Origin: Escherichia phage OSYSP
Sequence record: MF402939
Strand: one strand, 5' to 3'
DNA: 64,000 nt
Made by a program: the position numbers and the translations under genes. Shown one piece after another: positions 6,892 through 38,084 of this stretch (position 1 is its first letter; each line of letters starts with the position of its first letter). Under the pieces are notes generated by a model. The model was not told the DNA's origin. It ran no database searches and was given only the letters and a program-made list of their open reading frames with translations.

Positions 6892-7077
6892 TTACTCAGC
6901 TTTGAGTTTTTCAATAGCTGCATTAAGTTCCTTAAGAAACTCTTTTCGTACATTAAGACGATTAAGACTTACTAGTATATCATGTTTAAGTTCTTCGATG
7001 TATTTCTTCTCAACTTCAATATTGTTGATAGTGCTATCACGATGAACTTCTAGCTGTGCAATTACATTCTTGGACAT
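6892..7077 (-). CDS. hypothetical protein (61 aa, predicted coiled coil)
   Basis: ORF track; GAGGA SD. Confidence 0.5.
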   Translation of the reverse strand: MSKNVIAQLEVHRDSTINNIEVEKKYIEELKHDILVSLNRLNVRKEFLKELNAAIEKLKAE

Positions 7078-7104
7078 GCTTGTTTCCTCAGTTATTAATG
7101 AAAA

Positions 7105-7177
7105 TGGTATCTGTGGCTGAATTCGATGTCAGCAATGATAGCTGGTTGGCTACCGGTTTACTTAACTCTACACAGAA
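7105..7177 (-). tRNA. tRNA-like element, non-canonical (possible TCA-containing anticodon loop)
   Basis: 3' CACAGAT-A-CCA pairs with 5' TTCTGTG; stem CAGC/GCTG flanks loop TATCATT; D-arm and T-loop are atypical. Confidence 0.3.
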
Positions 7178-7179
7178 TT

Positions 7180-7262
7180 TGGCGGGCCGTGTAGGATTCG
7201 AACCTACGTTGTCTTTCGACATGGATTAACAGTCCACCGCCAAACCGCTTGGCTAACGACCC
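7180..7262 (-). tRNA. tRNA, anticodon GTT (Asn-type anticodon arm) with extended variable hairpin
   Basis: Acceptor GGGTCGT/ACGGCCC, D-arm GCCA-AGCGGTT-TGGC, anticodon arm GTGGA-CTGTTAA-TCCAT, 13-nt variable hairpin GTCGAAAGAC, T-arm GTAGG-TTCGAAT-CCTAC, CCA encoded. Confidence 0.55.
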
Positions 7263-7269
7263 TAAAATT

Positions 7270-7345
7270 TGGACGACCGCATGAGATTTGAACTCACATA
7301 AAAAGGATTTGCAATCCTTCGCCTAAGCCATTCAGCCAACGGTCG
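7270..7345 (-). tRNA. tRNA-Cys (anticodon GCA)
   Basis: Acceptor CGACCGT/GCGGTCG, anticodon arm AAGGA-TTGCAAA-TCCTT, T-arm GTGAG-TTCAAAT-CTCAT, CCA encoded. Confidence 0.65.
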
Positions 7346-7523
7346 ATTTATCTTGTTTTTCGAGATCTTCAAATTCTAAATCATTGAAGTTCCCTAGAGT
7401 ACGTGTATAGAACCCGTCTCCTGAGTCATAGCCTGATTTAGCACAATCACACATTTTAAATTCACGAAGATGTGTGAAGACATGTTCAGAACCACAACAC
7501 TTAAATATAACTAATCGTTTCAT
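7332..7523 (-). CDS. hypothetical Cys-containing protein (63 aa)
   Basis: ORF track; start overlaps stop of upstream ORF; last codons overlap the 5' end of tRNA-Cys. Confidence 0.45.
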   Translation of the reverse strand: MKRLVIFKCCGSEHVFTHLREFKMCDCAKSGYDSGDGFYTRTLGNFNDLEFEDLEKQDKSTVG

Positions 7524-7760
7524 TTACTCTCCAGTAGGATTATCTAAGGTATACTGAGTAGCTACTCCAGCTACATCTAGCAGACTTCCCATATTCCTAA
7601 TAACTCTAGAGATTGCGTCACCTTCGGCAGTTTCTGTAAACACCTTAAGTCTTAAGAAATCGCCACCACCATCCATACCAGAGAAAATATTTAGTAAGCG
7701 AAGCATTACCAACTTACGTTCATTCAATTCTTGTTCTGTCATGTTGCTTCTCCAGTTCAA
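7524..7760 (-). CDS. hypothetical protein (78 aa)
   Basis: ORF track; GGAGA SD. Confidence 0.6.
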   Translation of the reverse strand: MNWRSNMTEQELNERKLVMLRLLNIFSGMDGGGDFLRLKVFTETAEGDAISRVIRNMGSLLDVAGVATQYTLDNPTGE

Positions 7761-7792
7761 TTTATGTAATTATTATATAGAACTTTTGGAAA

Positions 7793-8065
7793 CTAAGCAA
7801 CTACATTTTTTAAGAATTTGATGCCTTTCTTTTTCTTCTTATATTTCCACGTTAATGGATTTTGTCGATTATGAACGCTTGAGATCTTTGTCTCGTCAAA
7901 GTTCTTCAATATCATGTAATCACAGGATAATTGTTCTAGTGGAATGTGATCACCGTCAAAAGCGTATACATAAGGCTGTTGACTAGCACGATAATGATAG
8001 ACTTTGTTAATTCTACGTTTCAGCGACTTATCCGCGCAGTAAATAAAGAAGTTTTCAGGATGCAT
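7793..8065 (-). CDS. hypothetical protein (about 90 aa)
   Basis: ORF track ORF 7793-8080 trimmed to internal ATG (MHPENFF...) that has AGGAG at 6-nt spacing; the first ATG abuts the tRNA 3' end. Confidence 0.5.
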   Translation of the reverse strand: MHPENFFIYCADKSLKRRINKVYHYRASQQPYVYAFDGDHIPLEQLSCDYMILKNFDETKISSVHNRQNPLTWKYKKKKKGIKFLKNVVA

Positions 8066-8082
8066 CAGCATCTCCTTCAATT

Positions 8083-8157
8083 TGGTGCACCCTGTTCGAA
8101 TTGAACGAACCTCTCAAGCTCTTCAGGCAAGCGCTAATCCATCTCAGCTAAAGGTGC
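8083..8157 (-). tRNA. tRNA, probable anticodon GAA (Phe?), weak anticodon stem
   Basis: Acceptor GCACCTT/AGGGTGC, T-arm GTTCG-TTCAATT-CGAAC, loop CTGAAGA at standard positions 32-38 but stem has two T-T mismatches; CCA encoded. Confidence 0.4.
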
Positions 8158-8163
8158 AAATTT

Positions 8164-8234
8164 TGGCAGGGGTAAAGGTATTCGAAACCTTTTCATGGGT
8201 TTTGGAGGCCCATTTGCAACCTATGCGTACCCCA
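8164..8234 (-). tRNA. tRNA-Trp (anticodon CCA), compact D-arm
   Basis: T-arm AAGGT-TTCGAAT-ACCTT, anticodon arm TGGGC-CTCCAAA-ACCCA, 3' TACCCCT-G-CCA; T1-T72 mismatch. Confidence 0.45.
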
Positions 8235-8243
8235 ATTGTTAAT

Positions 8244-8318
8244 TGGCACACCCACGGAGAATTGAACTCCGATTCTCAGATTGAAATCCTGATGTCCTAG
8301 CCATTAGACGATAGGTGC
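8244..8318 (-). tRNA. tRNA-Glu (anticodon TTC)
   Basis: Acceptor GCACCTA/TGGGTGT (G-U pairs), anticodon arm TCAGG-ATTTCAA-TCTGA, T-arm CGGAG-TTCAATT-CTCCG, CCA encoded. Confidence 0.6.
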
Positions 8319-8326
8319 ATTAAATT

Positions 8327-8414
8327 TGGTGGGCGTTAATGGAGTCGAACCACTCGAGTCGCAATGACCAGGGATTTACAATCCCCTCCGCTACCACTTA
8401 CGGAATAAACGCCC
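8327..8414 (-). tRNA. tRNA-Tyr (anticodon GTA), type II
   Basis: Acceptor GGGCGTT/AACGCCC, anticodon arm GGGGA-TTGTAAA-TCCCT, long variable arm, T-arm TGG-TTCGACT-CCA, CCA encoded. Confidence 0.7.
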
Positions 8415-8542
8415 ATATTTAGAAGCATTCAAATACTTGTTTAAACACTTTTAAATATGTTTCCAAATTAGATAACTATTATATCAAGTTTTAAGGCACT
8501 GAGCAAGTCAGATTTTGAAGAACTTGCTCAGTGCTGTATTAG

Positions 8543-8818
8543 TTAGTCGAACTTAGGAGTGACAATTAAAGAGAATGGGAGTTCGAAAACTTCTTCACCC
8601 TCATTACTAACAGTAACTACACGACCTTTAAGTTCAGACATTGAAATATCAATATCAGCTTTTGCATCTGGAGCCATTCCAGCTTCAACACATTTAGCTT
8701 TAACTTCCGGAAGGAGTTCTACATCGTAGAAATAAAGCCATTCAATCTCACCTTCCCAGCCTTCCCAGGATTTACAGATTGCACTTTCAATACCAGTTGC
8801 TATAACACGATTTTGCAT
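8543..8818 (-). CDS. hypothetical protein (91 aa)
   Basis: ORF track; AGGAG SD; followed on minus strand by a 13-bp-stem hairpin (about 8470-8515). Confidence 0.6.
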   Translation of the reverse strand: MQNRVIATGIESAICKSWEGWEGEIEWLYFYDVELLPEVKAKCVEAGMAPDAKADIDISMSELKGRVVTVSNEGEEVFELPFSLIVTPKFD

Positions 8819-8908
8819 TCGTTAACTCCTTCATCAATTTATATAACTATTATATCAGAAATTTAAAGTAAAAGGCAAGTACATTTTTAAAAATTCTGTT
8901 CGGAGGAG

Positions 8909-9115
8909 CTAAACTCCAGATTCTTCGGCCAAGTCTAGACTAATAAGAGTTATAGCCATAATTGCTGCACCGTGTTCTTTTTCTCCGGTGTTTTTAGCAG
9001 AGCCTATAATATCCTTAATCTGTTCGTAATAACTTTTTACTTCTTGTTCAATGCCTGCCTCGGCTATCATGCCTTTAGTCATGAATCGTTGCATGGTAAT
9101 TTCAGGATTAGCCAT
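8909..9115 (-). CDS. hypothetical protein (68 aa)
   Basis: ORF track; ATG overlaps stop of upstream small ORF (ATGGCTAA). Confidence 0.55.
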   Translation of the reverse strand: MANPEITMQRFMTKGMIAEAGIEQEVKSYYEQIKDIIGSAKNTGEKEHGAAIMAITLISLDLAEESGV

Positions 9116-9275
9116 GTTGTTTCTCCAGTTTCATTTTTAATAGTTTACAGATGAAATCAACGTCTTCATCTGTGCCTAAGTCTCTATCTTCAAGGGTCGC
9201 CTTGAAGTTTTTCGTCAATTCCATAAGGATGACTTCCCTAGAACGACGTGTTGGTGGCGGAGGAGGTCTATACAT
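9108..9275 (-). CDS. small proline-rich hypothetical protein (55 aa)
   Basis: Not in ORF track; ATG with AAGGA SD; stop overlaps next start; translation MYRPPPPPTRRSREV... Confidence 0.4.
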   Translation of the reverse strand: MYRPPPPPTRRSREVILMELTKNFKATLEDRDLGTDEDVDFICKLLKMKLEKQHG

Positions 9276-9290
9276 CTTAATTCCTTAATT

Positions 9291-9367
9291 TGGTAGGGGT
9301 GGTGGGATTCGAACCCACAAAACCTGAATTTTAAGTCCAGTACCTATGCCAATTCGATTACACCCCC
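9291..9367 (-). tRNA. tRNA, anticodon TAA (Leu UUA reader?) with short variable arm
   Basis: Acceptor GGGGGTG/CACCCCT, anticodon arm CTGGA-CTTAAAA-TTCAG, T-arm GTGGG-TTCGAAT-CCCAC, discriminator A, CCA encoded; 77 nt. Confidence 0.45.
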
Positions 9368-9474
9368 ATGTAATCAGTTTATTAGTTGATACATATTATA
9401 GCCTAAAGAAAACCCTACTACTAATCCTACGAACCAACCAATATAATAATCTTTTAATTTCACGGGTGTCAACC

Positions 9475-9654
9475 TCATTCAATATCTAGAGAAATACCAC
9501 AGGTAGGATTAATGCCTGTGCCTTTGCACGTAGGACAAACCCAGATATTACAGAATGTATCCCCTGCTTCTGCATCAGAACTTTCTCCAACTCCTAGACA
9601 GTCAGGACAGGCACATTCTTCTAGCTCTTGCTTGAGTTCTTGAAACTTAGACAT
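9475..9654 (-). CDS. small zinc-ribbon protein (59 aa, two CxxC pairs)
   Basis: Not in ORF track; ATG with AAGGA SD; translation MSKFQELKQELEECACPDCLG...CPTCKGTG. Confidence 0.45.
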   Translation of the reverse strand: MSKFQELKQELEECACPDCLGVGESSDAEAGDTFCNIWVCPTCKGTGINPTCGISLDIE

Positions 9655-9663
9655 ATAGTTTCC

Positions 9664-9852
9664 TTATTCAATTACTTTTGAGGCTTCAAGGGAGTCGATA
9701 TAGTGTACGTTTTCTACCATAATCATATAATCTGCCACTTTATCCATAGCCTGAACTTCAGAGGTAGCCCTGGCTAACCTATATCCTTTTTTATATTCAT
9801 CCGGGTATTCCCTATCTGGAATAAACACAACACAAACTAGGTATAGTTCCAC
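9664..9852 (-). CDS. hypothetical protein (62 aa)
   Basis: ORF track. Confidence 0.45.
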   Translation of the reverse strand: MELYLVCVVFIPDREYPDEYKKGYRLARATSEVQAMDKVADYMIMVENVHYIDSLEASKVIE

Positions 9853-9873
9853 TTGTAACCTCTCTAATCAAGA

Positions 9874-9951
9874 TGGTGGCTCCCCGAGGATTCGAACCTA
9901 CGTACCTTCCGGTTATGAGCCGGGTGCTCATACCATATGAGCTTGAGAACC
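9874..9951 (-). tRNA. tRNA, anticodon CAT, initiator-like anticodon arm
   Basis: Acceptor GGTTCTC/GGGAGCC, anticodon arm CCGG-CTCATAA-CCGG followed by GAAGG as in initiator tRNA; T-stem imperfect; CCA encoded. Confidence 0.45.
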
Positions 9952-9957
9952 AGAATT

Positions 9958-10046
9958 TGGCGGAAGAAGTGGGAATCGAACCCACAAGGCTATATTTCAA
10001 ACCGACAGATTAGCAATCTGCTGCAATACCGTTATGCTATTCTTCC
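9958..10046 (-). tRNA. tRNA-Ser (anticodon GCT), type II
   Basis: Acceptor GGAAGAA/TTCTTCC, anticodon arm GCAGA-TTGCTAA-TCTGT, long variable arm, T-arm GTGGG-TTCGATT-CCCAC, CCA encoded. Confidence 0.65.
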
Positions 10047-10067
10047 GAATTTATAAGATATATTATA

Positions 10068-10586
10068 TTAGAAATTTAGCTTCATAGCAAGAAAATTTTT
10101 CAAGTTTTCGGTAGACATCTCATCCACATCTACAGGAGAAACAAATCCATTTAATTGTCTAGCAAATTTTTCACCAGCAGGATCATTATCCCCAACAGCT
10201 ACCAATTTAAAAGGTAGTAATTTCAATTGCTTTAACAACGCTTTTCCTGGAGAAGAACCCAACATTGCCAGGGCTGGATAACCAGCGTTATGTAATGCTA
10301 CTGCCTTAAATACAGATTCAGCAATCAATACTACTTTTTCATCCCCAGTGAGGGTTTCTAGCCCCCATACACACTGTGTAGTAGAATAAGTAAAATATCT
10401 AGCTTCAAAGGGGCACTTACCATGACCTTTTGGAGCAGAAGGATTATACGTCTGATAGCCTCTCAACATCCCAGAGAAGTCATACAATGGGACTGTTAGC
10501 CATCCTTCCGGACTTAACCAGCAATGATACTTATCTGTATCAAACCCTCTAGATAAGAGATGTTCTGTTAGTTCATCAACAGTCAT
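10068..10586 (-). CDS. small Toprim-domain protein (about 172 aa)
   Basis: Start moved to ATG (MTVDEL...) after GAGAGAGG SD, because the first ATG of track ORF 10068-10637 lies inside the promoter; motifs IAESV...GSS...LVAVGDNDPAGEKFA match a Toprim fold. Confidence 0.6.
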   Translation of the reverse strand: MTVDELTEHLLSRGFDTDKYHCWLSPEGWLTVPLYDFSGMLRGYQTYNPSAPKGHGKCPFEARYFTYSTTQCVWGLETLTGDEKVVLIAESVFKAVALHNAGYPALAMLGSSPGKALLKQLKLLPFKLVAVGDNDPAGEKFARQLNGFVSPVDVDEMSTENLKNFLAMKLNF

Positions 10587-10616
10587 ATTAGATTCCTCTC
10601 TCAAATTTATAAATAT

Positions 10617-10645
10617 ATTATACAGAGAATTTAGCATTCAAGCAA
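10617..10645 (-). promoter_or_regulatory. sigma70-type early promoter (TTGCTT-17-TATAAT) with downstream ATAAATTTGAGAGAGG box
   Basis: Consensus hexamers and conserved downstream element on minus strand. Confidence 0.65.
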
Positions 10646-10761
10646 TTGAATTTTTTAACTTTTTAGAGGAAAATCATAGGATGCTTAAGGGTAGCAGGTA
10701 AGTGATCAGGACCGAAATTTGTGACCCCACTAAAAATCTGGGGGCAATTTTTAAAGACCCC

Positions 10762-10790
10762 TTGACATTTTCGCCGGGGTAATGTAAAGT
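10762..10790 (+). promoter_or_regulatory. sigma70-type promoter (TTGACA-17-TAAAGT) for the plus-strand low-complexity cassette
   Basis: Perfect -35 hexamer, 17-nt spacer, 4/6 -10; about 60 nt upstream of AGGAGG-ATG at 10853. Confidence 0.55.
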
Positions 10791-10852
10791 ATATGTTATG
10801 GATGAGTGATCAAAGAGACACACATTTTCTATATACTAGGAGGTGTCAAAAA

Positions 10853-11833
10853 ATGACAGAAGAAGTAGCTAAGAGTCCTGAAACCGTCGCTAGCGTAGCA
10901 GCAGAACTGCATCGTCACGAGGAATCAGATAAGAAAAAGTGGGAGAAAGTCAAAGCCTACGAGGAAAAACATCGTGAACACGATGAAGATGATGAAGAAG
11001 ATGACGATGATGAACATTGTCATAAATATGGAAAACATAAAATGCAAGAACCAGTAAACGTATTTACTAACGGCTTCCCTGGCATGGGTGCATTCCCAGC
11101 TAACGCAAGTGCTTTCGGTGGAGAAGGTATGGGTCTATTCGGAGCTATCCTAATCGGTGCTCTATTAACAGGCGGATTTGGTGGTTTTGGTGGTTTTGGT
11201 CGCGGTGCTGGCGTTGCCGCTGAAGGGACTGCTGTGGACGCGATCCTTTCTAACCAAGATACTGCAAGTATTCTAGCTGCAATCAATACTACTCGTACAG
11301 AAGCTAACCAGGGCACTGGGGCTGTTCTAAGCGCAGTAAACGGTGTGGGAGCTGCTCAAGCTGCTAGCACTCAGCAAGTTCTGACTACTGTCTACGGTAC
11401 AGGTGCTAATCTGTCAAACCAGATCTGTGCTGAAACTCGTAACGTTATTCAGGGTCAGTTCGATCTTTCTCGTCAGATGGATCAATCTTTCGCTGCTAAC
11501 CAGATAGCACGTGCTCAAGATAAGTTTGACTCTGCTCAGATTGCTTTCCAGCAGTCTATTCAGACTAACAACCAGTTCGCCGCTGTTCAGGCTCAGATGT
11601 GTGCTAACCAGAACGCTATCGAACGTCAGCTTGCTGAATGTTGCTGTGAGCTTCAGACTGCGATCGCTGGTGTAACTACTGCGCGTATTCAGGACGAACT
11701 GAATGAATGCCGTCTGCGTGAAGCAATCGCTCAAGGTAGTGGTGCAAATGGTCAGGTAATCAACCAAATCGCTGTAAGTCTTGGTGCTATCACTCAGACT
11801 CTGGCTGGTCTGCAGGCTAAACTGCCGGCTTAA
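10853..11833 (+). CDS. low-complexity protein (326 aa): acidic/His-rich N-terminus, Gly-rich hydrophobic segment, Ala/Gln/Asn-rich C-terminal domain
   Basis: Start set at ATG after AGGAGG (9-nt spacing) rather than track start 10793; segments EDDEEDDDDEHCHKYGKHK, GLFGAILIGALLTGGFGGFGGFGRGAG and CCC triplet; ctg/cgt/gct-biased codons; opposite strand to neighbours. Confidence 0.7.
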   Translation: MTEEVAKSPETVASVAAELHRHEESDKKKWEKVKAYEEKHREHDEDDEEDDDDEHCHKYGKHKMQEPVNVFTNGFPGMGAFPANASAFGGEGMGLFGAILIGALLTGGFGGFGGFGRGAGVAAEGTAVDAILSNQDTASILAAINTTRTEANQGTGAVLSAVNGVGAAQAASTQQVLTTVYGTGANLSNQICAETRNVIQGQFDLSRQMDQSFAANQIARAQDKFDSAQIAFQQSIQTNNQFAAVQAQMCANQNAIERQLAECCCELQTAIAGVTTARIQDELNECRLREAIAQGSGANGQVINQIAVSLGAITQTLAGLQAKLPA

Positions 11834-11854
11834 AATTAAGGGGAGGAGCCCATT

Positions 11855-12271
11855 ATGAGTAAATATGGTTTTGTAAACAACGGATTTAATCAACAAATGG
11901 GCTCCCAGCAGCCCGTTCCGGGTCTGGATAATCCTTACCTACAACAGTTGCAACAGCGTTTAGCAGAAGCTCAACAGATGCAGCAACAACTCCAGCAAAA
12001 CCCTGGAAGTGTGAGTCCTATGCAAATGATGCAGCAAATGAGCGGGCAGTCGCAAATGCCTCAACAAATGCAGCAACAGGTGCCTCAGCAGCAAGTTCAG
12101 CAACAAACCCAACAACCGCAGGTTTCTGCGGAAGGACAGGCAGTACTAGCCCTTTTCGAAGATTTCGCAAAGACAGAGGATGGGAAACAGCTTGTATCAC
12201 TTATGGGTAAGTTTAATAGCTTCTGCCAAAGCCAAGTTGCAAAAGCTCAAAATGGTGATAATAACTCCTAA
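11855..12271 (+). CDS. glutamine-rich low-complexity protein (138 aa)
   Basis: ORF track; AAGGGGAGGAG SD; long Q/M-rich tracts (QQMQQQLQQ...QQMQQQVPQQQVQQQTQQPQ). Confidence 0.65.
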   Translation: MSKYGFVNNGFNQQMGSQQPVPGLDNPYLQQLQQRLAEAQQMQQQLQQNPGSVSPMQMMQQMSGQSQMPQQMQQQVPQQQVQQQTQQPQVSAEGQAVLALFEDFAKTEDGKQLVSLMGKFNSFCQSQVAKAQNGDNNS

Positions 12272-12280
12272 GGAGGAATT

Positions 12281-12475
12281 ATGTGTTGCAGAAAATCTGT
12301 TTCGTGCTGCCCAATGCCTGTAGCACGTTGTTGCTCTCCAGCAATGTTTACACAAATACCGGCGTTCAATCCCTTTGCCTTTAAGCCTATTCTTATCCTG
12401 CCCCCTAGAGTAGATTTTCAGTCAAGATTGGCCTCCCGTATGGGTGGTTGCTGTAACAAGAGTATATGGTTCTAA
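12281..12475 (+). CDS. small cysteine-rich protein (64 aa; CC doublets)
   Basis: ORF track; AAGGAGG SD; MCCRKSVSCCPMPVARCCSP...GGCCNKS; followed by an intrinsic terminator. Confidence 0.55.
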   Translation: MCCRKSVSCCPMPVARCCSPAMFTQIPAFNPFAFKPILILPPRVDFQSRLASRMGGCCNKSIWF

Positions 12476-12490
12476 AGAACCAAACAATAA

Positions 12491-12526
12491 AGCCCCTAGT
12501 CGAAAGACTTAGGGGCTTTTTCTTTT
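12491..12526 (+). terminator. rho-independent terminator ending the plus-strand cassette
   Basis: Hairpin AGCCCCTAG-loop-CTAGGGGCT followed by a T-run. Confidence 0.7.
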
Positions 12527-12536
12527 GCCTTAAATA

Positions 12537-12571
12537 CAGAAAAGCCCGCGCTCTCGGAGAAAACGCGGGCT
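12537..12571 (-). terminator. rho-independent terminator after the SPFH gene
   Basis: Hairpin GCCCGCG-loop-CGCGGGC followed by TTTT on minus strand; convergent with the previous terminator. Confidence 0.6.
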
Positions 12572-12595
12572 TAGTTCGAAGATTACGTGTAACTA

Positions 12596-13543
12596 TTACT
12601 TGTTACGCATATCCATGATCATTTGACCATCATAGCCAGTGCCAACTACAGTCTGAGGTACACCACCTTGATATTTCTGAGCACGAATCATCTCAACTTC
12701 CAGTTGTTTCCAACGAATCATCTCAGGAGTAATGGTACGTTGCAGTGCGGCGTTAGCTTCAGCTTCTTTCTTAGCTGCGTACAGTTTAGCATCTGCGTCA
12801 CGTTCATTAGCAATAGCTTGGTTATTGCGAGCTTCACGATCTGCTTCTGCTTGTTTAACTTTTTGCTGTGCTTCCTGTTCAACGCGGGCAAGTTCAGCTT
12901 TCGCAGCGTTAACTTGCTCTTCACGAACTTTGGTATTCTGTACCTGTTCCATGATTACCGGTGGCAAAGTAATATCTTGAAGAAACACCTGCTTAACTGT
13001 GTAACCATATGGGCGTGCATACTCTTCAACTTCCTGTTGAATTGCAGTTTGCAATTGAGCCTGAATTTTAGCATCAAACAAATCTTGTGCTTTAGGTACA
13101 GACTTACCAAACTCACAAATAGTAGATAGTAATTTTTCAGTTACATATTTGTCTAACGCTTGATCCTGAGTACCTGCATTAATACGGTTAATCGGTGCCT
13201 TAGAACCATCAAACTGCAACATAACAGTCAGATCAACAGTGGATTTAAACTTATCCTGACTAGGAACCTGAAGTTTATCTAATTTTACAGCAATATCTTT
13301 TGTACTAAAAGTATCGAAAGATGCAAACGGGTTTACAATATGGAAACCAGGTAATACTGGATTAGGGTCTACTTTACCCAGGAATGTTTGAGTTTTAACC
13401 GTACCATCAGAAACAATAGTATATGAATTAAAAGCTAGGATTAAACCTGCTAAACCAACTACAGCACCAATACCCCAACGTTTAATAGTGCGAATTACTT
13501 TTTGCTCAGAAGTCAGTTCTTTCATATTTTTAGTATTAAACAT
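12596..13543 (-). CDS. SPFH/band-7 (HflK/HflC-like) membrane protein
   Basis: 315 aa; N-terminal hydrophobic helix (IGAVVGLAGLILAF), then SPFH-like core and long Ala/Glu/Gln-rich coiled coil; AAGGA SD. Confidence 0.6.
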   Translation of the reverse strand: MFNTKNMKELTSEQKVIRTIKRWGIGAVVGLAGLILAFNSYTIVSDGTVKTQTFLGKVDPNPVLPGFHIVNPFASFDTFSTKDIAVKLDKLQVPSQDKFKSTVDLTVMLQFDGSKAPINRINAGTQDQALDKYVTEKLLSTICEFGKSVPKAQDLFDAKIQAQLQTAIQQEVEEYARPYGYTVKQVFLQDITLPPVIMEQVQNTKVREEQVNAAKAELARVEQEAQQKVKQAEADREARNNQAIANERDADAKLYAAKKEAEANAALQRTITPEMIRWKQLEVEMIRAQKYQGGVPQTVVGTGYDGQMIMDMRNK

Positions 13544-13580
13544 ATATTTCCTTTGTTTTAGTTACAGTTAATAAAATTGA

Positions 13581-13652
13581 CCGAGGTGACAGGATTCGAA
13601 CCTGCATAAAGGAATTTAGAAGACTCCTGCCTCTCCCTTAGACTACACCCCG
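13581..13652 (-). tRNA. tRNA-Arg (anticodon TCT), CCA not encoded
   Basis: Acceptor CGGGGTG/CACCTCG, anticodon arm GGAGT-CTTCTAA-ATTCC, T-arm GCAGG-TTCGAAT-CCTGT. Confidence 0.55.
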
Positions 13653-14152
13653 TTTAAGTATTTTTAAGAACTCTCGTAAAAACTCTTAAAAATACAGACG
13701 ATACCGGGAGAGTCATAAGTCTCACTCATTAAGTATTTCAAGACAAAATACAGTAACGTCTATTATTTTCCAGTTTAAGTCAGGGTGACTTAGTGGTTAT
13801 GTCCTGCGGTATATTGAGGACTCGGTTAGGCTTGGGGTCATGACTTCCCGCCTTTTGCTGCTACTCAACAGGAGTTATCGCGAATTACCTGTGCTATTGT
13901 GCACCATTAGTGACATCTCTCATGTCAGCATTTCCCACTTTGTGGATAGCTTGAAAAACTACTCCGATATGGAGAAAGAACTTCACTATCCTAGAATACC
14001 TTCTAAAGTTCTTCTTTAGCCTGGACATAGTTAAATCGTAATAAAACTATTCAGCAGACTGGTTGGTTAGTCTGGAACCAACTACCGCGTGGTTTAGGCA
14101 GTGCGCAACTAACCTCGGAAGCTTTTACGTTAAAAGCATCAGTTATCCAGTT

Positions 14153-14230
14153 CTTACCGACCGTAGGATTCGAACCTACATCTTCCACCAGTTACGGCTT
14201 GATAATACCAATTATACTAGGACGGCAGTG
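14153..14230 (-). tRNA. tRNA-like element, non-canonical (no foldable anticodon stem)
   Basis: T-arm GTAGG-TTCGAAT-CCTAC, D-loop-like AATTGGTA, acceptor GCCGTCC/GGTCGGT with one mismatch; no anticodon arm can be formed. Confidence 0.3.
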
Positions 14231-14449
14231 TTACTACATAAGTGATTTCCACACCCCACTATTTATAAATTAGAGAAGAGTTTAGGGGAGAGGTTTCAGA
14301 CGCCTCATTTTACACGTTCTAGCCACTAACCGGGATTGCCGCCCCCTGTGTACTAGTTTTACAACTAACCCACCGACTCTATTCAATGCGCTCCGGTTGG
14401 GATTCTGCACTCAGCGTAATCGGCTCGCTGTTCCCTAATTTATGAATAT

Positions 14450-14478
14450 ATTATACAGAATTTATAAGCATTTAGCAA
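14450..14478 (-). promoter_or_regulatory. sigma70-type early promoter (TTGCTA-17-TATAAT)
   Basis: Consensus hexamers on minus strand. Confidence 0.6.
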
Positions 14479-14486
14479 ATAAATTT

Positions 14487-14930
14487 TTAATTAAATTCGC
14501 CAGCAATCTGAGCAGCAGTACCACCATCATAACGCCCGGGAAATTCTTCCTTAATCGCTTTCATCAGCATACCTTTTGTAATTCCAGGGTTTAGCTTAAC
14601 TAATTCTGCAAAGTATTTACGAATCTCAGTATCAGATAACTGAGGAGGCAGATACTCCTGCAACCACTTATTTAGAATGTATTCATACTGAGCGGACTGC
14701 AAGCTATAACTATCAAGATCTTGACCATGAAGTTTAGCTTTCATCTGGTTAATGCTTTTTAGTTGAGCTTTGAGATAAGACACAAATTGTTCAGAAGTGA
14801 TGAAATCTTTATCAATACGCTGAAGATCCCCGATTATGGTCTGATAGCTTTTAGCGACTTCTTTATCAGAACCATTAAACTTAGAATCCTGCAAAGCTCT
14901 ACGCAAAACATCTAAAATATTCTCTTCCAT
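14487..14930 (-). CDS. GatB/YqeY-domain-like protein (147 aa)
   Basis: ORF track; size and motifs (GITKGMLMKAIKEEFPGRYDGGTAAQIAGE) resemble YqeY-family proteins; start overlaps stop of upstream small ORF. Confidence 0.5.
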   Translation of the reverse strand: MEENILDVLRRALQDSKFNGSDKEVAKSYQTIIGDLQRIDKDFITSEQFVSYLKAQLKSINQMKAKLHGQDLDSYSLQSAQYEYILNKWLQEYLPPQLSDTEIRKYFAELVKLNPGITKGMLMKAIKEEFPGRYDGGTAAQIAGEFN

Positions 14931-29885: not shown

Positions 29886-30702
29886 ATTAATTATTATCAG
29901 TGGTGCAGGTTTGAGTGTTGAAAGCGGTGTACGAGCCTTCCGTACTGATACTGCTAGTGGTAAAGCATTGTGGGATGATTATGATTTAGAAGAGGTATGT
30001 AGTATTCATGCCTTTCGTGGTAACTTTTATCATAAAACCCATATGTTTTACAACAAGCGACGTGAAGAGCTAAAAACTGTTGAGCCTAACCTTGCGCATC
30101 TTCGTATTGGTGAGTGGTATAAGAAATATCCGGGTCAAGTAGTAAATTTGACTACTAACGTTGATGACCTTATTGAGCGTGCTGGTGTTCCCCATAATGA
30201 TATTCTCCACATTCATGGATACTTAAAGGAGGTTGTTGTAGCTGATAGCTACAATAGTAGTAATAAACGAATTATTGATGTTGGGTATAACTCTATTGAT
30301 CCGGATGATTATAAATGGGTTAAACCTAATGTAATCTTCTTTGGGGAGCATGCTCCAGCGTACGCAGAAATGTACAATATTTTTGATGGTATTACCAGTC
30401 AAGATATGGTCGTTGTAGTTGGTTGCTCTAACCAAGTAATTAACTTCTACTGGGAATTATTCCCTGTTCTTAACCGTACTGCTGCGAAACTTATGGTGGT
30501 TAACTACTACGATAGTGCCCTAGCGGCAGAACCAGGTTATCAAGGTATGACTCGTAGTGAGATGTACCAGTTGGAAGAACGCGGTATCCCCTACTGGAGT
30601 AAAGGTGCGGTAGATGCTTTCAGTGATCCTGGTTTTATTGCTCGTGTAGAAGCTCATCTAGAGGGTAGACCTTATATGCCGGGAAAACAGATATGTCCAT
30701 AG
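29878..30702 (+). CDS. Sir2 (sirtuin)-like NAD-binding protein
   Basis: 274 aa; N-terminal IISGAGLSVESGVRAFR matches the sirtuin GAGxS..SGIP.FR NAD-binding motif; TTNVDDL and HIHG motifs; no zinc-binding Cys pairs seen. Confidence 0.6.
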   Translation: MRRLIIISGAGLSVESGVRAFRTDTASGKALWDDYDLEEVCSIHAFRGNFYHKTHMFYNKRREELKTVEPNLAHLRIGEWYKKYPGQVVNLTTNVDDLIERAGVPHNDILHIHGYLKEVVVADSYNSSNKRIIDVGYNSIDPDDYKWVKPNVIFFGEHAPAYAEMYNIFDGITSQDMVVVVGCSNQVINFYWELFPVLNRTAAKLMVVNYYDSALAAEPGYQGMTRSEMYQLEERGIPYWSKGAVDAFSDPGFIARVEAHLEGRPYMPGKQICP

Positions 30703-30875
30703 TTAAATCTGTGTATACACATCCAGATGATATATTTGTATGGGCGGATGGTAGTTGGTGCTATCGATGTGAGTTATGGGAAATGGACTATAAATCTGAT
30801 GACTATGGTGTCATATATGTTGATACGGTTGAGTATGATACGTTCTTAGAAAGGGACAAAAATGGAAATAAGTAA
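30693..30875 (+). CDS. hypothetical protein (60 aa)
   Basis: ORF track; overlaps both neighbours by a few nt. Confidence 0.4.
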   Translation: MSIVKSVYTHPDDIFVWADGSWCYRCELWEMDYKSDDYGVIYVDTVEYDTFLERDKNGNK

Positions 30876-31368
30876 TACTCCAATTATTTTTCTAGATATT
30901 GATGGGGTGCTCAACTCGAGCATCTCCCATCACCATGCACCTGATGATGAAAAGATTTTCTTTGGAAGTGACTGGGTTTTTAAACCGCTTCTCAAGGCTT
31001 TTCAGGACTTTATTCGTCCTTCCCCAATAATGATTGTTGGGGTATCTTCATGGTTCTCTGTCAGGAATGAGATGGAGAACGTTCAGATTATGACCGGATT
31101 AGATCTTATCGATCGTTTTCTTGGTACAACGGATTTTACTGGTGGTGGGCTATCTAGGGGTAATTCTGTTCTTCGCTTCGTTGAAAAACACAAGCTCAAA
31201 CATTGGTGTGTGCTGGATGATGCTGGTGCTATGATGTATCAGTATCCAACGGTTATAGTCAATGGTAGAACTGGAATAAATCTTCAAGATTTAAGAGCTG
31301 TTAGCTATATGTTAGAATTTAGTCCAGATCTTGAAATGTGTAAAGCCCTACAACAATTTAAGGTGTAA
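30862..31368 (+). CDS. HAD-superfamily phosphatase-like protein (possible deoxynucleotide monophosphatase)
   Basis: 168 aa; N-terminal FLDIDGVL motif (DxDx(T/V) nucleophile) typical of HAD hydrolases. Confidence 0.55.
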   Translation: MEISNTPIIFLDIDGVLNSSISHHHAPDDEKIFFGSDWVFKPLLKAFQDFIRPSPIMIVGVSSWFSVRNEMENVQIMTGLDLIDRFLGTTDFTGGGLSRGNSVLRFVEKHKLKHWCVLDDAGAMMYQYPTVIVNGRTGINLQDLRAVSYMLEFSPDLEMCKALQQFKV

Positions 31369-31370
31369 AT

Positions 31371-31799
31371 ATGTTCAATAATGTATTCTCTAAAGAGGCT
31401 AACCCGATATTGGTTAATTTTTGGCGTACTCTTCCAGCCAACCTGTACAATGAGGCTATTAATGCTCTGAAAATATGGTGTGAGAATAATGAAATCTCCT
31501 TTGCTTTTAAAGGCGAGATTGAGGAGGCTCCCTGTATTGGTTTAATTGTGCAGGTGGAGGATGGTCTTGAAGAGATTGTCGGCTGGAAAGAGTTGGATGA
31601 AATGGGCTTGGTTTTTGCGTTAAACTATAAGCTATTTATGCCCAATAAACACCGTATTGTTGTTAACTATAAAACCAATGAATCTCCTGGTTTTCAAGTT
31701 AATGAACGGTATGGTTGGTCTTACTCACCAGAAGAAGTAAATGATGGTATCCAAAAACTTCGTCGTTTTGGTTATCAAATTCCGGGTTTAACCGCCTAA
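31371..31799 (+). CDS. hypothetical protein, paralog A (142 aa)
   Basis: ORF track; AAGGTG SD; shares PCIG...W.ELD.MGL..ALN..LF.P motif with next ORF. Confidence 0.6.
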   Translation: MFNNVFSKEANPILVNFWRTLPANLYNEAINALKIWCENNEISFAFKGEIEEAPCIGLIVQVEDGLEEIVGWKELDEMGLVFALNYKLFMPNKHRIVVNYKTNESPGFQVNERYGWSYSPEEVNDGIQKLRRFGYQIPGLTA

Positions 31800-31808
31800 G
31801 GGGGCACA

Positions 31809-32207
31809 ATGGAACAAGTATATTGGCGTCAGATTGATCCTAGTTTGGTGAAGCGTGCGGAGAAGCTGCTACAACGTTGGTTGGGGGTAAGACAAGCCTC
31901 CTTCACTTTTCCGGAGCAGCAAATAGACGATCCCTGTATTGGTGTTTTCCTATCAGGCTACGCTAGGGAATGGGAATGGGAATTGGATTGGAATGAGTTG
32001 TCTGCTATGGGTTTAATTGTTGCCCTAAATTTCTCTTTGTTCCATCCACGTGGTTTGGCTATATGTCGTATGCCTGATGATGGTTGTTCACCCCATCTTT
32101 TACAGGTGGAAGATGATATTTGGGAGTACACTCCAGATATTCTCAAAGAAGCTAAAGAACAGTTAAACCATGTTGGGATCTATGTTCCAGGCTTGAATGA
32201 TGAATGA
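31809..32207 (+). CDS. hypothetical protein, paralog B (132 aa)
   Basis: ORF track; AAGGGGG SD; similar to preceding ORF. Confidence 0.6.
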   Translation: MEQVYWRQIDPSLVKRAEKLLQRWLGVRQASFTFPEQQIDDPCIGVFLSGYAREWEWELDWNELSAMGLIVALNFSLFHPRGLAICRMPDDGCSPHLLQVEDDIWEYTPDILKEAKEQLNHVGIYVPGLNDE

Positions 32208-32231
32208 TTTTTATTAGCTGAACTCTGATTA

Positions 32232-32256
32232 CCGAGTCATTTTGGCTCGGTTTTAT
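32232..32256 (+). terminator. possible intrinsic terminator
   Basis: CCGAG-loop-CTCGG hairpin followed by TTTTAT. Confidence 0.35.
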
Positions 32257-32298
32257 CCGTACTCAAGACCAATGATAGCACCATCCGGAAAATTTTAC

Positions 32299-32327
32299 TT
32301 GCAGGATGCCCAAAATCTTGATATAAT
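32299..32327 (+). promoter_or_regulatory. sigma70 promoter (TTGCAG-17-TATAAT, extended -10 TGATATAAT)
   Basis: Hexamers read directly; followed by about 500 nt of ORF-free leader. Confidence 0.6.
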
Positions 32328-32826
32328 ATTTATATTGAATTGAGAGACATTAGTAAAAATTGATTTTGCTAATTTTTCTTGTTTACAATCCGCGATACGG
32401 AACAGTTAGGCTGCCCCATTAAGGGTTGTTTTAACTGTTACGTGTTAGTTTTTAAACAAATAATTAATAGAATACTTAGCGATCTGCGTCCCGTAGGAAC
32501 CCTGGTAAGGCCTCGAAGCAACCTAGATAGAGGTGGTTGTGAAGTGAGACGGGAGGAGTGAAAAACTCCGAGACGTGATTCTGTAAGTTATATTGCATCT
32601 AGTATGAGCTAGTATATGAAGCATTAGGTGAGCAAATCTGGCTTAGCGGCCATCCTCAAGGATTTGTGCGGTATAGCAAAGCAGCAGCGCAGCGTGAAAG
32701 TGGAAGTTGCCACCCCACTTCAGTATTTGCGATTAATTTGTTGAGAAATTGACAGTAACAGTTGTTCTATTCTTTCTGAATAGTCCTAAAGAAAACTTAT
32801 TTCATTTCCAATACAGGAGTATTGTT

Positions 32827-35616
32827 GTGTTTTCAATCCTACAAGGTCATGCAGGATTTCATCGCGATTTAGCCACAGGCAATTGGCGAGAAGTTAAGGC
32901 AGAAGATTATCTTTTTGCTAAAAGATTTTCCTCAAAGCATCCTGAAGGTAAACCAGCTTCAATGCCCTTCAAGTTTGATGTAATTGACGAAGTTGATCCT
33001 CAAACCCTAGTAGAAATGCTTCCTCTTATGAGACGTTTAACGTCTGATCCTCATATCGTTGCGGTACGAGGTAGATGTCTTGCACCTAAAAATAATGTGC
33101 GACGTAAGAAGGGCAACTTTAATGTATCTAATCCAAGTCATATAATCGCAATGGATGTGGATGGTATTGTAGATACAGGAGGTTGTAACAAGTTTGATCT
33201 TGTTGGCATGGCGCGTCATATTATTAGGATGTTGAATAGTATTAGTGAGGATATGTTTCCTCTTGATGCAGGGTTTATTGCTCATGCATCGTCTTCGGCT
33301 GGACTAAAACCAGGTATCCGAATGCATTTAATACTAGAATCTAATGTTAAAGTTACACAGGGTCAGATCAAGTTCTTATTTACATCTATCAACGAAAGTA
33401 GTAGACAAAAGTATGGTTTTGATATTGCCGACTTAGCTTATTACTCTTCAGTACAGCTCCACTATTTTGCAGATCCTTTATTTATTGATGGTATAGTTGA
33501 TCCGTTTAAAGCGGAGGATGCTTCACGTCTGGTATTTGTTAAGGGTTCTAAAGTAAATTTACCTAATAATCTAGTTGACTATGAAACAACTAGAGGGGAG
33601 TTTAAAGAGGAATTCTACTCTTTACTCGATCAAATTAAAGGTAAAAAAGCTGCCTCTGATAAAGTAGAAGAAACCATCAGCGAGTTAGAGGAAGCTGAGG
33701 ATGGTGTATATCTACGTATTATTCCTAAACTCTATCACCGAGCACTAGAGGATGGTGTAGATTTTGGTTGGCTAGAGAAGGAGATCCGCCCAGCTTTATC
33801 TGAGTATATTGCAACTAAAGATAATAGTCGTAATATTCAGGATTATTTTAATAACGGTCGAAAACAGGCTCTGAAAGCATTTGTTAATAATTCTAAACGT
33901 GATATACCTGATGTTTTAAAAGGTATTCCACTTAAAAAGCTAGAAACTAACTCTCTAGAAACAGATAATTTCTTGAAATTAAACACTGTGCCACCAGAAG
34001 GTTATATGACTTTTGTAAAAGCAAGTCTAGGTACAGGTAAAACCACGGCGGTTGTGCGTTGGTTAGATTCAGGAGTTATTAAAGGTAATTTCTTAGCAAT
34101 TACCAATACTAGGGCACTGGTGTCTTCAAATGCCAAGAAATTTAGTGCAGGACAATATGATAAGTCTGTAGATATGCTTAATTTTAAGCGTGGTGCTATT
34201 GACCGTATGTCCACAACTATCCACTCTTTACATAAGTTTAAGAGTTTTATTGGTCAAATTGATGCAATCTTTATCGATGAATGTGATGCAGTAATGAATG
34301 ACCTATTATTCGCCCCGGTTGTTAAGCAACGTCGTGAGTGTATTCAGGTTCTTCGTGATATTCTTGCAACTGCAAAAATCATTATACTATCCGATGGTGA
34401 TATTAGTGCGGAAACAATTGAAGCATATGGTTCTTTGATTGAGTTCGATAAACCAGTTGCATTCTATAATCATCACCGTAAGATGCTGTCAAAAGCCCAC
34501 GCTTATGAGTTTCCAGATGAATCCAGTATTTGGGTTGCACTTCAGACTTCTCTAGAGATGGGGGAGAAATCTATTCTAGTATCTGATTGTGGCCCTGATG
34601 AGCTGAATGAGAAGGGTATGGCACTGCGTCGTAACACGGGTGCGTTAGTTAAGGAAATCCATTCAAACTCTACCTCAGATGTGGATATTCGACGTATTCT
34701 GGATTATACAACTAATGAGCTAATTGATCAACAAATTGATTGCTTATTATGTAGTCCATCCGTAACGAGCGGTGTTGACTTCAACTATTTTGATAACGTA
34801 TTCGTTATTACTAGAACCAGTAATCAAGCGCCAAACATGCGTTTTCAAGCAATCAGGCGCGACCGTGGTGCTCAGAATATCTATTATTTTATTGATAAAT
34901 CCACTAGTGGGTTCTCTGCAGGTTCTGAACAATATAATATTGATGAAGGTTGGCTGGAGTTAGCACAGCAATTATACGCACGTCGTAGAGAGCTGGAATC
35001 TAGAAACTATACTAGTACCTTACGGTATTACTTGCTTGATCAGGGTGCAACTATTGATATTTTCAGCGAAAGCTGGGGAACTATTGAAGGTGCTGGTAAA
35101 GAATATACAGAAGAGCGAATCAAAGCTATTCTGCATTCAACTCCAGATTATTGTGCCCCACGTCATGCAGATGCATATGAAGCTAAACTACTTCTTGTTC
35201 GCTATTATCATCTTGAGTCTATTAAAGATGTAACAGTTGAGCATGTTGAACAATATATCAAAGATAAACCGAATGATCGAGCTGCATTCTTCCATAAGAT
35301 GCACGAGATGTTCTGGGAAGATATTAAAAAGTGTTCAAATGTGACCATTAAACCATTCATAGAGGCTCTGAAAGGTAAGAAGAAAGACTTCTTCCTTAAA
35401 ACAGGTCAGAGTGCTAACCCAAAATATGCTAGAATGTATCTTGGTATGATGGGTATTGGTAAGGATATGAACACTGAAAATATCGTAGACTGGTATAGAA
35501 CCTATTGTAAAATCGAGTGTATGCCAATTCCATATAAGTTCATGACTGACGAGGAAAAACATATGCACGATGAAGCAATGTCAGAGCTAGGTGCTAGAAA
35601 TGACAGTGAAGAATAA
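32827..35616 (+). CDS. large DExD-box NTPase/helicase-like protein (putative replication origin-binding type)
   Basis: Walker A LGTGKTT, Walker B IFIDECD, downstream CSPSVTSGVDF; start tentatively GTG at 32827 after AGGAG (track start is ATG 32749). Confidence 0.7.
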   Translation: MFSILQGHAGFHRDLATGNWREVKAEDYLFAKRFSSKHPEGKPASMPFKFDVIDEVDPQTLVEMLPLMRRLTSDPHIVAVRGRCLAPKNNVRRKKGNFNVSNPSHIIAMDVDGIVDTGGCNKFDLVGMARHIIRMLNSISEDMFPLDAGFIAHASSSAGLKPGIRMHLILESNVKVTQGQIKFLFTSINESSRQKYGFDIADLAYYSSVQLHYFADPLFIDGIVDPFKAEDASRLVFVKGSKVNLPNNLVDYETTRGEFKEEFYSLLDQIKGKKAASDKVEETISELEEAEDGVYLRIIPKLYHRALEDGVDFGWLEKEIRPALSEYIATKDNSRNIQDYFNNGRKQALKAFVNNSKRDIPDVLKGIPLKKLETNSLETDNFLKLNTVPPEGYMTFVKASLGTGKTTAVVRWLDSGVIKGNFLAITNTRALVSSNAKKFSAGQYDKSVDMLNFKRGAIDRMSTTIHSLHKFKSFIGQIDAIFIDECDAVMNDLLFAPVVKQRRECIQVLRDILATAKIIILSDGDISAETIEAYGSLIEFDKPVAFYNHHRKMLSKAHAYEFPDESSIWVALQTSLEMGEKSILVSDCGPDELNEKGMALRRNTGALVKEIHSNSTSDVDIRRILDYTTNELIDQQIDCLLCSPSVTSGVDFNYFDNVFVITRTSNQAPNMRFQAIRRDRGAQNIYYFIDKSTSGFSAGSEQYNIDEGWLELAQQLYARRRELESRNYTSTLRYYLLDQGATIDIFSESWGTIEGAGKEYTEERIKAILHSTPDYCAPRHADAYEAKLLLVRYYHLESIKDVTVEHVEQYIKDKPNDRAAFFHKMHEMFWEDIKKCSNVTIKPFIEALKGKKKDFFLKTGQSANPKYARMYLGMMGIGKDMNTENIVDWYRTYCKIECMPIPYKFMTDEEKHMHDEAMSELGARNDSEE

Positions 35617-35833: not shown

Positions 35834-35842
35834 AAAATTTAT

Positions 35843-38073: not shown

Positions 38074-38084
38074 TATAAATGTAT

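Follow-up and report, generated by a model that had tools for sequence, protein, structure and literature searches.

The window analyzed here is a 64,000-nucleotide (nt) stretch of the genome of Escherichia phage OSYSP (sequence record MF402939; one strand, 5' to 3'), and all positions given below are those of this window unless another record is named. Within a block of minus-strand genes, the window contains a cassette of three closely spaced plus-strand genes with open reading frames (ORFs) of 326, 138 and 64 amino acids (aa). These are gene 1 at 10853-11833, gene 2 at 11855-12271 and gene 3 at 12281-12475, the last of which encodes four CC doublets. An initial annotation, made from the letters of the window alone, had picked out this trio as a moron-type insertion of unusual low-complexity proteins, and we confirmed the three linked genes and their orientation at the same positions.

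With a promoter and a terminator to itself, the cassette forms a self-contained transcription unit. Upstream of gene 1, a plus-strand sigma-70-type promoter (TTGACA-17-TAAAGT, 10762-10790) agrees with the consensus at 10 of 12 positions and is the best sigma-70 match of the region. The promoter scan itself lends it no support, as three promoter-like sites were observed in the region against 2.7 expected by chance; the site is credible because it coincides with promoter P12, which is annotated in the records of phages T5 and BF23. Plus-strand ribosome-binding sites (RBSs) were read upstream of all three genes, including AGGAGG at 10838-10843 (9 nt 5' of the gene 1 start codon, ATG 10853), GGAGG at 11842-11846 for gene 2, and AAGGAGG at 12270-12276 for gene 3, where it overlaps the stop codon of gene 2. 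Each of these sites has an RBS annotated at the homologous BF23 position. An in-frame ATG at 10793 would lengthen the gene 1 ORF to 346 aa, but it is an unlikely start, since it lies directly 3' of the -10 hexamer and has no RBS, and 10853 is taken as the real start. The cassette ends with a plus-strand intrinsic terminator (12489-12526) that consists of a bulged hairpin (12489-12519; -21.7 kcal/mol, z -4.2) followed by a U-run. It faces the terminator hairpin of the SPFH gene, which is located on the minus strand at 12572-12542 (-24.1 kcal/mol, z -5.2). The promoter, the strong RBSs and the two opposed terminators had all been noticed in the initial annotation, and each of them held up in our analysis.

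The trio is an early operon of phage T5 that was annotated long ago and is uncharacterised, rather than a new insertion. It corresponds to T5.077 (38064-39029 in T5), T5.078 and an unnamed 64-aa coding sequence of the T5 record AY543070. The features of that record at the locus further include promoter P12, an 'efficient bidirectional rho-independent terminator' and, just 3', a major DNA nick. In the BF23 fragment AJ604530, the corresponding promoter-genes-terminator unit is annotated together with its RBSs, and the terminator is named ter1. A megablast search with the segment matched 422 phage records, 214 of them at full length, with T5 and BF23 included. A second T5 record (AY587007) divides gene 1 into ORF072 and ORF073, and the promoter is annotated as early in T5. 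The trio has thus been in the T5 genome record for about twenty years as three hypothetical proteins, though T5 is a classic model phage. It is unmentioned in the main text of the papers on T5/BF23 genomics, on T5-like virion proteomics and on a genome-wide T5 knockdown screen.

In AY587007, gene 2 is called 'cAMP-dependent protein kinase catalytic subunit', and this label has since propagated to other records. We rejected the kinase assignment, since gene 2 has no kinase match in Pfam or NCBIfam and its structural model consists of a helix, a disordered linker and a helical hairpin. Gene 3 is annotated in T5 (AAS77125) and BF23 (ORF 64aa) and is overlooked in many other T5-like records. Among the records with annotation faults at genes 1-3 are AY587007, ESCO30/40, STWB21, SP15, HdH2, Stitch, SPC35 and EscoHU1.

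Windowed guanine-plus-cytosine (GC) content is 0.47-0.49 across 11.0-12.2 kb, compared to 0.35-0.40 in the flanks, which bears out the earlier impression of a GC-richer region. In gene 1, the GC content is 0.65 at the first and 0.44 at the second codon position (background 0.52 and 0.36, respectively), and at the third position (GC3) it is 0.34, compared to a background of 0.31 +/- 0.05. Since the excess sits at codon positions 1 and 2, the rise in GC reflects proteins rich in Ala, Gly and Gln rather than foreign DNA, and a foreign origin argued from GC content is ruled out by a GC3 value near the background. We also calculated the codon adaptation index (CAI) using the E. coli weights of Sharp and Li. 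Gene 1 has a CAI of 0.487 and ranks fifth among the 61 ORFs of the window (background 0.296 +/- 0.104), while genes 2 and 3, with 0.257 and 0.207, are unremarkable. The host-like usage of ctg/cgt/gct-type codons, ascribed earlier to the region as a whole, is therefore a property of gene 1 but not of its two companions. The codon adaptation of gene 1, combined with its strong expression signals, points to an abundant product.

The ratios of non-synonymous to synonymous substitution rates (dN/dS) in eight T5-like genomes are 0.154, 0.173 and 0.284 for genes 1, 2 and 3, respectively, and the 64 codons of gene 3 are intact in 8 of 8 T5-like genomes. As judged by these substitution patterns, all three ORFs are real genes held by purifying selection. 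Constraint is unevenly distributed inside gene 1, with a dN/dS of 0.37 and many insertions and deletions (indels) in the N-terminus and a dN/dS of 0.08-0.09 in the CCC core and the C-terminal end. Between the window and phage Stitch, the synonymous rate (dS) falls along the operon, from 0.44 for gene 1 to 0.17 for gene 2 and 0.05 for gene 3. The gene 3 region contains no Rfam element, and its RNA fold (z -1.7) is not unusual and leaves the low dS unaccounted for. Recent recombination or a constraint at the nucleotide level are possible reasons for this near-frozen sequence.

The gene 1 protein is organized as an N-terminal helix, a variable acidic/His linker, a conserved EPVNVFTNG motif and a Gly-rich uncharged hydrophobic segment (residues 92-116), followed by long predicted helices, the ECCCE motif (C263-265) and a highly conserved C-terminus, NGQVINQIAVSLGAITQTLAxLQ. 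The hydrophobic span comprises 25 uncharged residues and has a 19-residue Kyte-Doolittle mean of 1.72, so that gene 1 may reasonably be expected to associate with a membrane. The CCC triplet is invariant among the aligned gene 1 homologs, and the acidic/His N-terminus is the least conserved part of the protein. Gene 1 is a full-length member of phrog_8119 (E 1e-197), a PHROG of unknown function.

The gene 2 protein has a disordered N-terminus, a helix at residues 27-48 (YLQQLQQRLAEAQ), a Q/P-rich linker of variable length and a C-terminal helical hairpin at residues 92-133. The invariant residues of the hairpin are T107, D109, G110, K111, K119, F120, N121, C124 and Q125. Across the phage backgrounds described below, gene 2 retains the helix, with the pattern LQQ.L.EAQ, and the C-terminal block with the nine invariant residues just listed. 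The Q/P-rich linker ranges in length from a few to about 45 residues, and its poly-Q stretch is the least conserved part. In the AlphaFold2 model, the hairpin 92-133 is predicted fairly confidently, with a predicted local distance difference test score (pLDDT) of 79-89. Gene 2 is a full-length member of phrog_7894 (E 2e-80), which is also of unknown function. A Foldseek search of this protein against viral models returned a single match, W8VT10 (143 aa, 40% identical), which we take to be the gene 2 ortholog of Pseudomonas phages of the RSP/KPP23 type.

In the gene 3 protein, M1, C3, C17 and C18 are invariant, and the remainder is rich in Pro, Ser and Phe and poorly conserved. It begins with MCC (MSCNC in a lambdoid form), and a further internal CC is retained in every background. 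Gene 3 belongs to no PHROG. Its start, MCCRKSVSCCPMP, contains no hydrophobic signal sequence or lipobox, and the same is true for all its orthologs; indeed, no signal peptide or lipobox was found in any of the three proteins. Searches of Pfam, NCBIfam, PADLOC, PHROGs and the PDB sequences, which used both individual sequences and a profile as queries, returned for the three proteins only the two PHROGs of unknown function, in agreement with the initial annotation, which had recognised no family. Of the protein features that it had emphasized, the CCC triplet, the Gly-rich hydrophobic segment and the CC doublets proved to be conserved, but conservation is lowest in the poly-Q and acidic/His tracts.

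The distribution of the cassette among T5-like phages is patchy. A DNA polymerase with at least 90% identity to that of the window is encoded in about 440 phage records, and gene 1 is found in only about 218 T5-like records and in none of the Klebsiella, Proteus or Vibrio relatives. T5-like genomes with about 45% identity in gene 1 still carry the plus-strand trio within a minus-strand block. The cassette is dispensable, as cassette-negative T5st0, T5Mos and sequenced BF23 exist. T5st0 has no equivalent of window positions 6909-14926. In T5Mos, positions 30661-38625 are deleted (PMC11464382), and in the coordinates of the T5 record the deletion endpoint falls inside T5.077, with the promoter removed. 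In the complete BF23 genome, hegA is followed directly by the T5.081 ortholog and the trio is absent, in agreement with a reported deletion of about 4 kb that covers ORF071-075 (PMC10644984).

A further empty site was found by comparing two related phages, Stitch, with the gene order NadR, trio, SPFH, and rutana, where NadR and SPFH are separated by about 260 bp; the two differ by an indel of 1.76 kb. The segment absent from rutana, an Epseptimavirus phage, corresponds to 10700-12443 in comparison with Stitch and the window (BLAST breakpoints at window positions 10699 and 12444), and the promoter at 10762-10790 falls within it. Because a decayed end of gene 3 and a decayed terminator remain and there is microhomology at the junction, we consider this empty site to be a secondary deletion. 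Within the T5 group, these comparisons make the cassette look old and repeatedly lost rather than recently gained. The moron-type insertion postulated at the outset is thus supported inasmuch as the cassette is self-contained, dispensable, patchy and shared with unrelated phages, but the cassette is not peculiar to this phage, given the number of T5-like records that contain it. At the level of the site the insertion reading is not supported, since the sole empty site examined, that of rutana, is a deletion with a remnant of gene 3. According to the initial annotation, its reading would be refuted if the trio were conserved at this locus in T5-like phages and had a structural or lysis role assigned, or if a clear domain match were found. 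The trio proved to be conserved there, but neither such a role nor a domain match is attached to it.

Outside the T5 group, we found the trio in two further settings. A lambdoid-type contig (L008) encodes a full-length gene 1 homolog, 35% identical, followed by recognisable homologs of genes 2 and 3. This trio is flanked by the gene for the Q antiterminator on one side and by those for the holin, lysozyme and Rz on the other, and it runs on the opposite strand. The trio of Pseudomonas phage RSP and of its metagenomic twin (the 62-63 kb type; L010 and L016) diverges from the operon for terminase and portal proteins and has terminators on both sides, and the related 62.8-kb phage KPP23 has at least gene 1. 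Upstream of the trios in these two settings, no match to the sigma-70 consensus turned up. Altogether, the three genes are linked in four backgrounds, namely T5/BF23/window, the T5-like genomes of about 45% identity, the lambdoid contig and the RSP/KPP23-type phages, and by this linkage of homologous sequences they are a co-inherited, horizontally shared module. A megablast search of the lambdoid contig against phages gave no match, and an alignment of the lambdoid and RSP-type sequences gave one weak match among viral contigs. PHROG scans of the genes flanking the lambdoid and RSP trios provided no functional hints. Behind the trio of L008 come two genes of the same orientation (7751-8260 and 8547-8978 of that contig; 169 and 143 aa) that look mutually paralogous and match no family.

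A profile built from gene 1 homologs retrieved 414 cluster representatives at E<=1e-3, of which 28 at E<=1e-30. In a pool of 179 family proteins, made up of the best 150 of these 414 representatives and the close T5-like homologs, CCC is present in 155. The family core has the form QxAECCCE(L/I)K...TRxLI...L and comes after a long N/Q/A/S/T-rich predicted helical region. Nearly all full-length members have the CCC triplet, and most members are 240-290 aa in length and lack the N-terminal extension, so that the Gly-rich hydrophobic segment stands almost at the start; some members have long amphipathic repeats instead of the hydrophobic segment. No family member has a match in Pfam, and no source names one. 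On the strength of these profile matches, gene 1 is a member of a large unnamed phage family with a near-universal triple cysteine. A short subfamily was identified at 44 viral-contig loci. The Q-rich and CC-peptide partners were considered as a family-wide trait and rejected, as they were not found with the short subfamily. A co-oriented ORF of about 100 aa invariably comes after the short form (L037, 3803-4874; L004, 8001-9148; L031, L033, L038, L051 and L028 alike), and the short CCC gene and this ORF may constitute a separate two-gene module with a structural role.

The left neighbour of the trio in the window, divergent from it, is a minus-strand gene for a Toprim protein (10068-10637, 189 aa). 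It is the ortholog of SP15 ORF75, which is T5 'Rad', and is described in older records as a DNA primase or as hypothetical. Experiments have shown that Rad, itself a Toprim protein, counteracts retron defence systems (10.1101/2023.03.15.532788; PMC10644984). The spontaneously lost region of about 8 kb was named the Anti-Defense Island (10.1101/2023.03.15.532788) and later the tRNA-rich region. When nine cloned fragments were tried against retrons, the activity was mapped to tRNA-Tyr, two small ORFs and Rad (10.1101/2023.03.15.532788; PMC11555353), and the trio is not among the active components reported. The cassette lies within the T5st0 and BF23 deletions, is cut by the T5Mos deletion and adjoins these proven anti-defence genes, and its association with counter-defence is suggestive. 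The right neighbour, convergent with the trio, is the minus-strand SPFH/band-7 gene (12596-13543), the T5.080 ortholog. We rejected a functional coupling of the trio to this gene, because SPFH is kept where the trio is deleted (rutana) and because the lambdoid, RSP-type and divergent T5-like trios have no SPFH gene beside them; functional independence of the two seems likely.

From these features we tentatively infer that the trio gives rise to an abundant early, membrane-associated, cysteine-linked complex of three proteins, with an accessory role in conflicts at the level of the cell envelope, either in the exclusion of competitors or in counter-defence. According to this proposal, P12 would drive early, strong expression of T5.077, T5.078 and the 64-aa ORF, with transcription ending at ter1. 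Gene 1 would be the abundant scaffold, whose Gly-rich segment would fix it in or on the inner membrane and favour its self-association, and whose long, mostly uncharged helical domain after the anchor would present the CCC triplet. The products of gene 2, with its hairpin and one invariant Cys, and gene 3, with its MCC and CC motifs, would be small partners joined to gene 1 by thiols, with the linkage being metal, disulfide or acyl in nature. The module is accessory, being required for neither replication, assembly nor lysis, yet it is retained by purifying selection in nature, and it would most likely act by shutting out competing phages or by neutralising a membrane-acting host defence. Because the three genes travel together, are under selection in nature and have been repeatedly lost in the laboratory, they are probably conditionally useful, which is the typical profile of genes involved in phage-host or phage-phage conflict.

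A number of observations weigh against this proposal. Several of them concern the predicted membrane topology and structure. The AlphaFold2 model of gene 1 is all helical, but it has a pLDDT of 49.6 and only the helix 12-45 is confident, and owing to this low pLDDT the model was not used for a fold search. The first charged residue on the N-terminal side of the hydrophobic span is D or E in 78 of 91 members, and that on the C-terminal side is R or K in 67 of 91. In this redundant set of 91 members, these flanking charges amount to a weak positive-inside signal for an N-out/C-in orientation, against which the 12 positive charges in the 90-residue N-terminus of the T5 form would speak. Hydrophobic periodicity near 3.5-3.6 in gene 1 is marginal (heptad z 1.1-1.6). 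A periplasmic complex would be hard to assemble, because genes 2 and 3 have no signal peptide. Other observations concern the genomic and functional context. PADLOC had no match for the trio, and no paper on the trio was found when the literature was searched by the T5 locus tags. When mutants with deletions of about 8 kb were challenged with 33 defence plasmids, a notable loss of infectivity was seen on two retrons only, and it was mapped to tRNA-Tyr and Rad (PMC11555353). If these deletions include the trio, as we infer from the SP15 map, then the phage can do without the trio when facing the remaining systems of the panel. In Epseptimavirus, the left neighbour of the trio is NadR/PnuC and there is no linkage to Rad. 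A search with the trio-type alignment in 100,044 species-representative bacterial genomes, a tblastn search with gene 1 against plasmids and a distant BLAST search with the lambdoid trio against E. coli genomes all gave no match. Since these bacterial searches were empty, prophages do not commonly carry the trio, in contrast to many exclusion genes. Finally, members of the short subfamily tend to lie in or near head modules, which indicates a different role. The short form of L037 is directly 3' of the major head protein gene, that of L051 is near the head protease, and that of L004 lies between capsid and connector/sheath genes.

The location of the short forms also bears on an alternative in which the CCC protein is a virion or assembly accessory, either head-associated or ejected, whose hydrophobic segment enters the host membrane at infection and which is optional in T5-like phages. 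Besides the co-orientation of the short forms within structural modules (L037, L051, L004), such a role would suit the high expression signals and codon adaptation of gene 1, as expected for a stoichiometric protein. Virion studies of T5 and BF23 would be blind to T5.077 if made on cassette-negative stocks, and sequenced BF23 has no trio; T5st0, which also lacks it, is presumably the usual stock for T5 structural work. We nevertheless consider a virion role unlikely. The T5 promoter is of an early sigma-70 type and annotated as early, the gene is in the early region and distant from the late genes, and cassette-negative phages yield fully infectious particles. The short subfamily has no gene 2 and gene 3 partners and may differ in role, and the trio itself is oriented opposite to the lysis genes (L008) or the terminase/portal genes (L010, L016). 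The invariant cysteines in all three proteins, together with the His/acidic N-terminus of many T5-like versions, could alternatively serve a thiol-based metal or redox module that binds or buffers metal ions or reactive electrophiles during infection. Histidine-, Cys-pair- and Gln-rich metal-storage proteins are exemplified by Hpn and Hpn-like of Helicobacter pylori, CC doublets are typical of metallothioneins, and some gene 1 orthologs have N-terminal runs such as HHYHHHHHEHY. However, the His/acidic region is the least conserved (dN/dS 0.37, with indels) and is absent from the RSP, lambdoid and short forms. There is neither a match to a metal-binding family nor a metal-related gene in the neighbourhoods, and three adjacent cysteines on a helix would point apart, which would be a poor geometry for a single metal ion. 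We therefore give this explanation little weight as well.

The conserved Gly-rich hydrophobic segment is also compatible with a membrane pore, a toxin or a lysis-timing factor of the holin, antiholin or spanin kind, in which gene 1 oligomerises through this segment and the small proteins are cofactors. The initial annotation had listed such a pore or toxin among its candidate roles. The outline of the trio is like that of an i-spanin/o-spanin pair, in that a membrane-anchored helical Cys protein is combined with a small Pro-rich Cys partner, and in the lambdoid contig the trio adjoins the holin gene. Gene 1 has one uncharged Gly-rich hydrophobic span, but neither a holin nor a spanin family is matched. 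A holin, a lysozyme and an Rz-type protein are encoded separately in the lambdoid contig L008, on the strand opposite to the trio rather than with it in a late lysis cassette, and the holin and lysozyme of T5 are encoded elsewhere. The identification of the pair as Rz/Rz1 spanins was rejected on the absence of a lipobox or any lipoprotein signal in gene 3 and on the separate Rz-type gene of the lambdoid contig, and the early-type promoter is a further difference from spanins. This promoter is also strong, a lethal early pore would abort the infection, and cassette-negative laboratory stocks grow and plaque normally (PMC11464382). A pore or lysis function is thus improbable. Even more so is a trio that forms a condensate, a hydrogel or an amyloid through its Q/N-, G- and FG-rich low complexity, which we hold to be very improbable. 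This notion draws on the Q-rich linker of gene 2, on the GLFG and GGFGGFGGFG motifs and the Q/N/A-rich domain of gene 1, and on the pLDDT values below 50 predicted for about half of gene 2 and for gene 1 residues 47-140. However, the poly-Q and acidic/His features that had led the initial annotation to consider a condensate are not conserved. In L014 and L015 only a few residues are left of the poly-Q linker, and its lambdoid counterpart is rich in Pro. Constraint falls on the predicted helices and cysteines rather than on the low-complexity stretches, and the Gly-rich segment keeps a hydrophobic core typical of a membrane segment.

A role in envelope-level conflict can be compared to several known systems. 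Phage morons are autonomous promoter-gene-terminator units, first described in lambdoid phages such as HK97. Similarly to morons, the cassette has its own promoter and terminator, runs against the orientation of its neighbours, is dispensable and patchy, and is common to unrelated phages. In contrast to them, it is found in a strictly lytic phage, is early, looks ancestral with repeated loss, has a base composition that is not foreign and consists of three co-evolving genes instead of one. The genes of the Anti-Defense Island (Rad, tRNA-Tyr and the two small ORFs) resemble the adjoining cassette in being expressed early and dispensable in the laboratory, and they are lost together with it in the T5st0 and sequenced BF23 deletions. 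Unlike them, the trio is on the opposite strand, forms its own unit and occurs without Rad in Epseptimavirus. A further parallel is provided by Llp of T5 and by Imm and Sp of T4, which are early superinfection-exclusion membrane proteins of lytic phages (in part PMC9586334). The trio is likewise early, predicted to be located at the envelope and non-essential in single infections. It differs from these proteins by having no sequence similarity to them, no lipobox, no signal peptide and three components, and its locus is in a tRNA region and not, as for Llp, beside the gene for a receptor-binding protein.

The proposal of an envelope-level complex can also be put in a bolder form, which we hold to be improbable. 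In this form, the CCC family would be a new and widespread class of membrane-associated phage proteins with neighbouring cysteines that undergo chemical modification or cross-linking within the bacterial cell, and the trio would build a covalent lattice in or under the inner membrane early in infection, linked by disulfide, metal-thiolate or S-acyl bonds, that would block competitor DNA or a membrane-acting defence. The start of gene 3, MCC followed by basic residues, and its CCP motif resemble the dual-palmitoylation sites of eukaryotic proteins such as GAP-43 and surfactant protein C. If true, this likeness would make it conceivable that a phage protein is S-acylated in a bacterium. Hundreds of diverged clusters of the family are present in environmental phages without a description in domain databases or among solved structures. 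Since strains with and without the cassette exist (T5 wild type versus T5st0 and T5Mos, Stitch versus rutana), its function is directly testable. At the same time, the existence of these strains calls for caution, as much of the work on T5 was done on cassette-negative stocks.

Several minor observations were made on the records and on the ends of the two transcription units. Near-identical T5-like sequence is deposited under the labels of a Listeria phage, a Campylobacter phage and Enterococcus faecalis, which is probably due to contamination or mislabelling. The window starts at approximately the same genomic position as the BF23 record AJ604530, a 14.5-kb 'tRNA gene region', and positions 10600-12700 of the window align with 10598-12698 of that record at 97% identity and an offset of 2 bases. 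In the stem of the SPFH terminator hairpin, between the two convergent transcription units, about 12548-12552 is occupied by GCGC, the consensus of nick 3, a 'major single-chain interruption' that T5/BF23 have at 32.6% of the genome.

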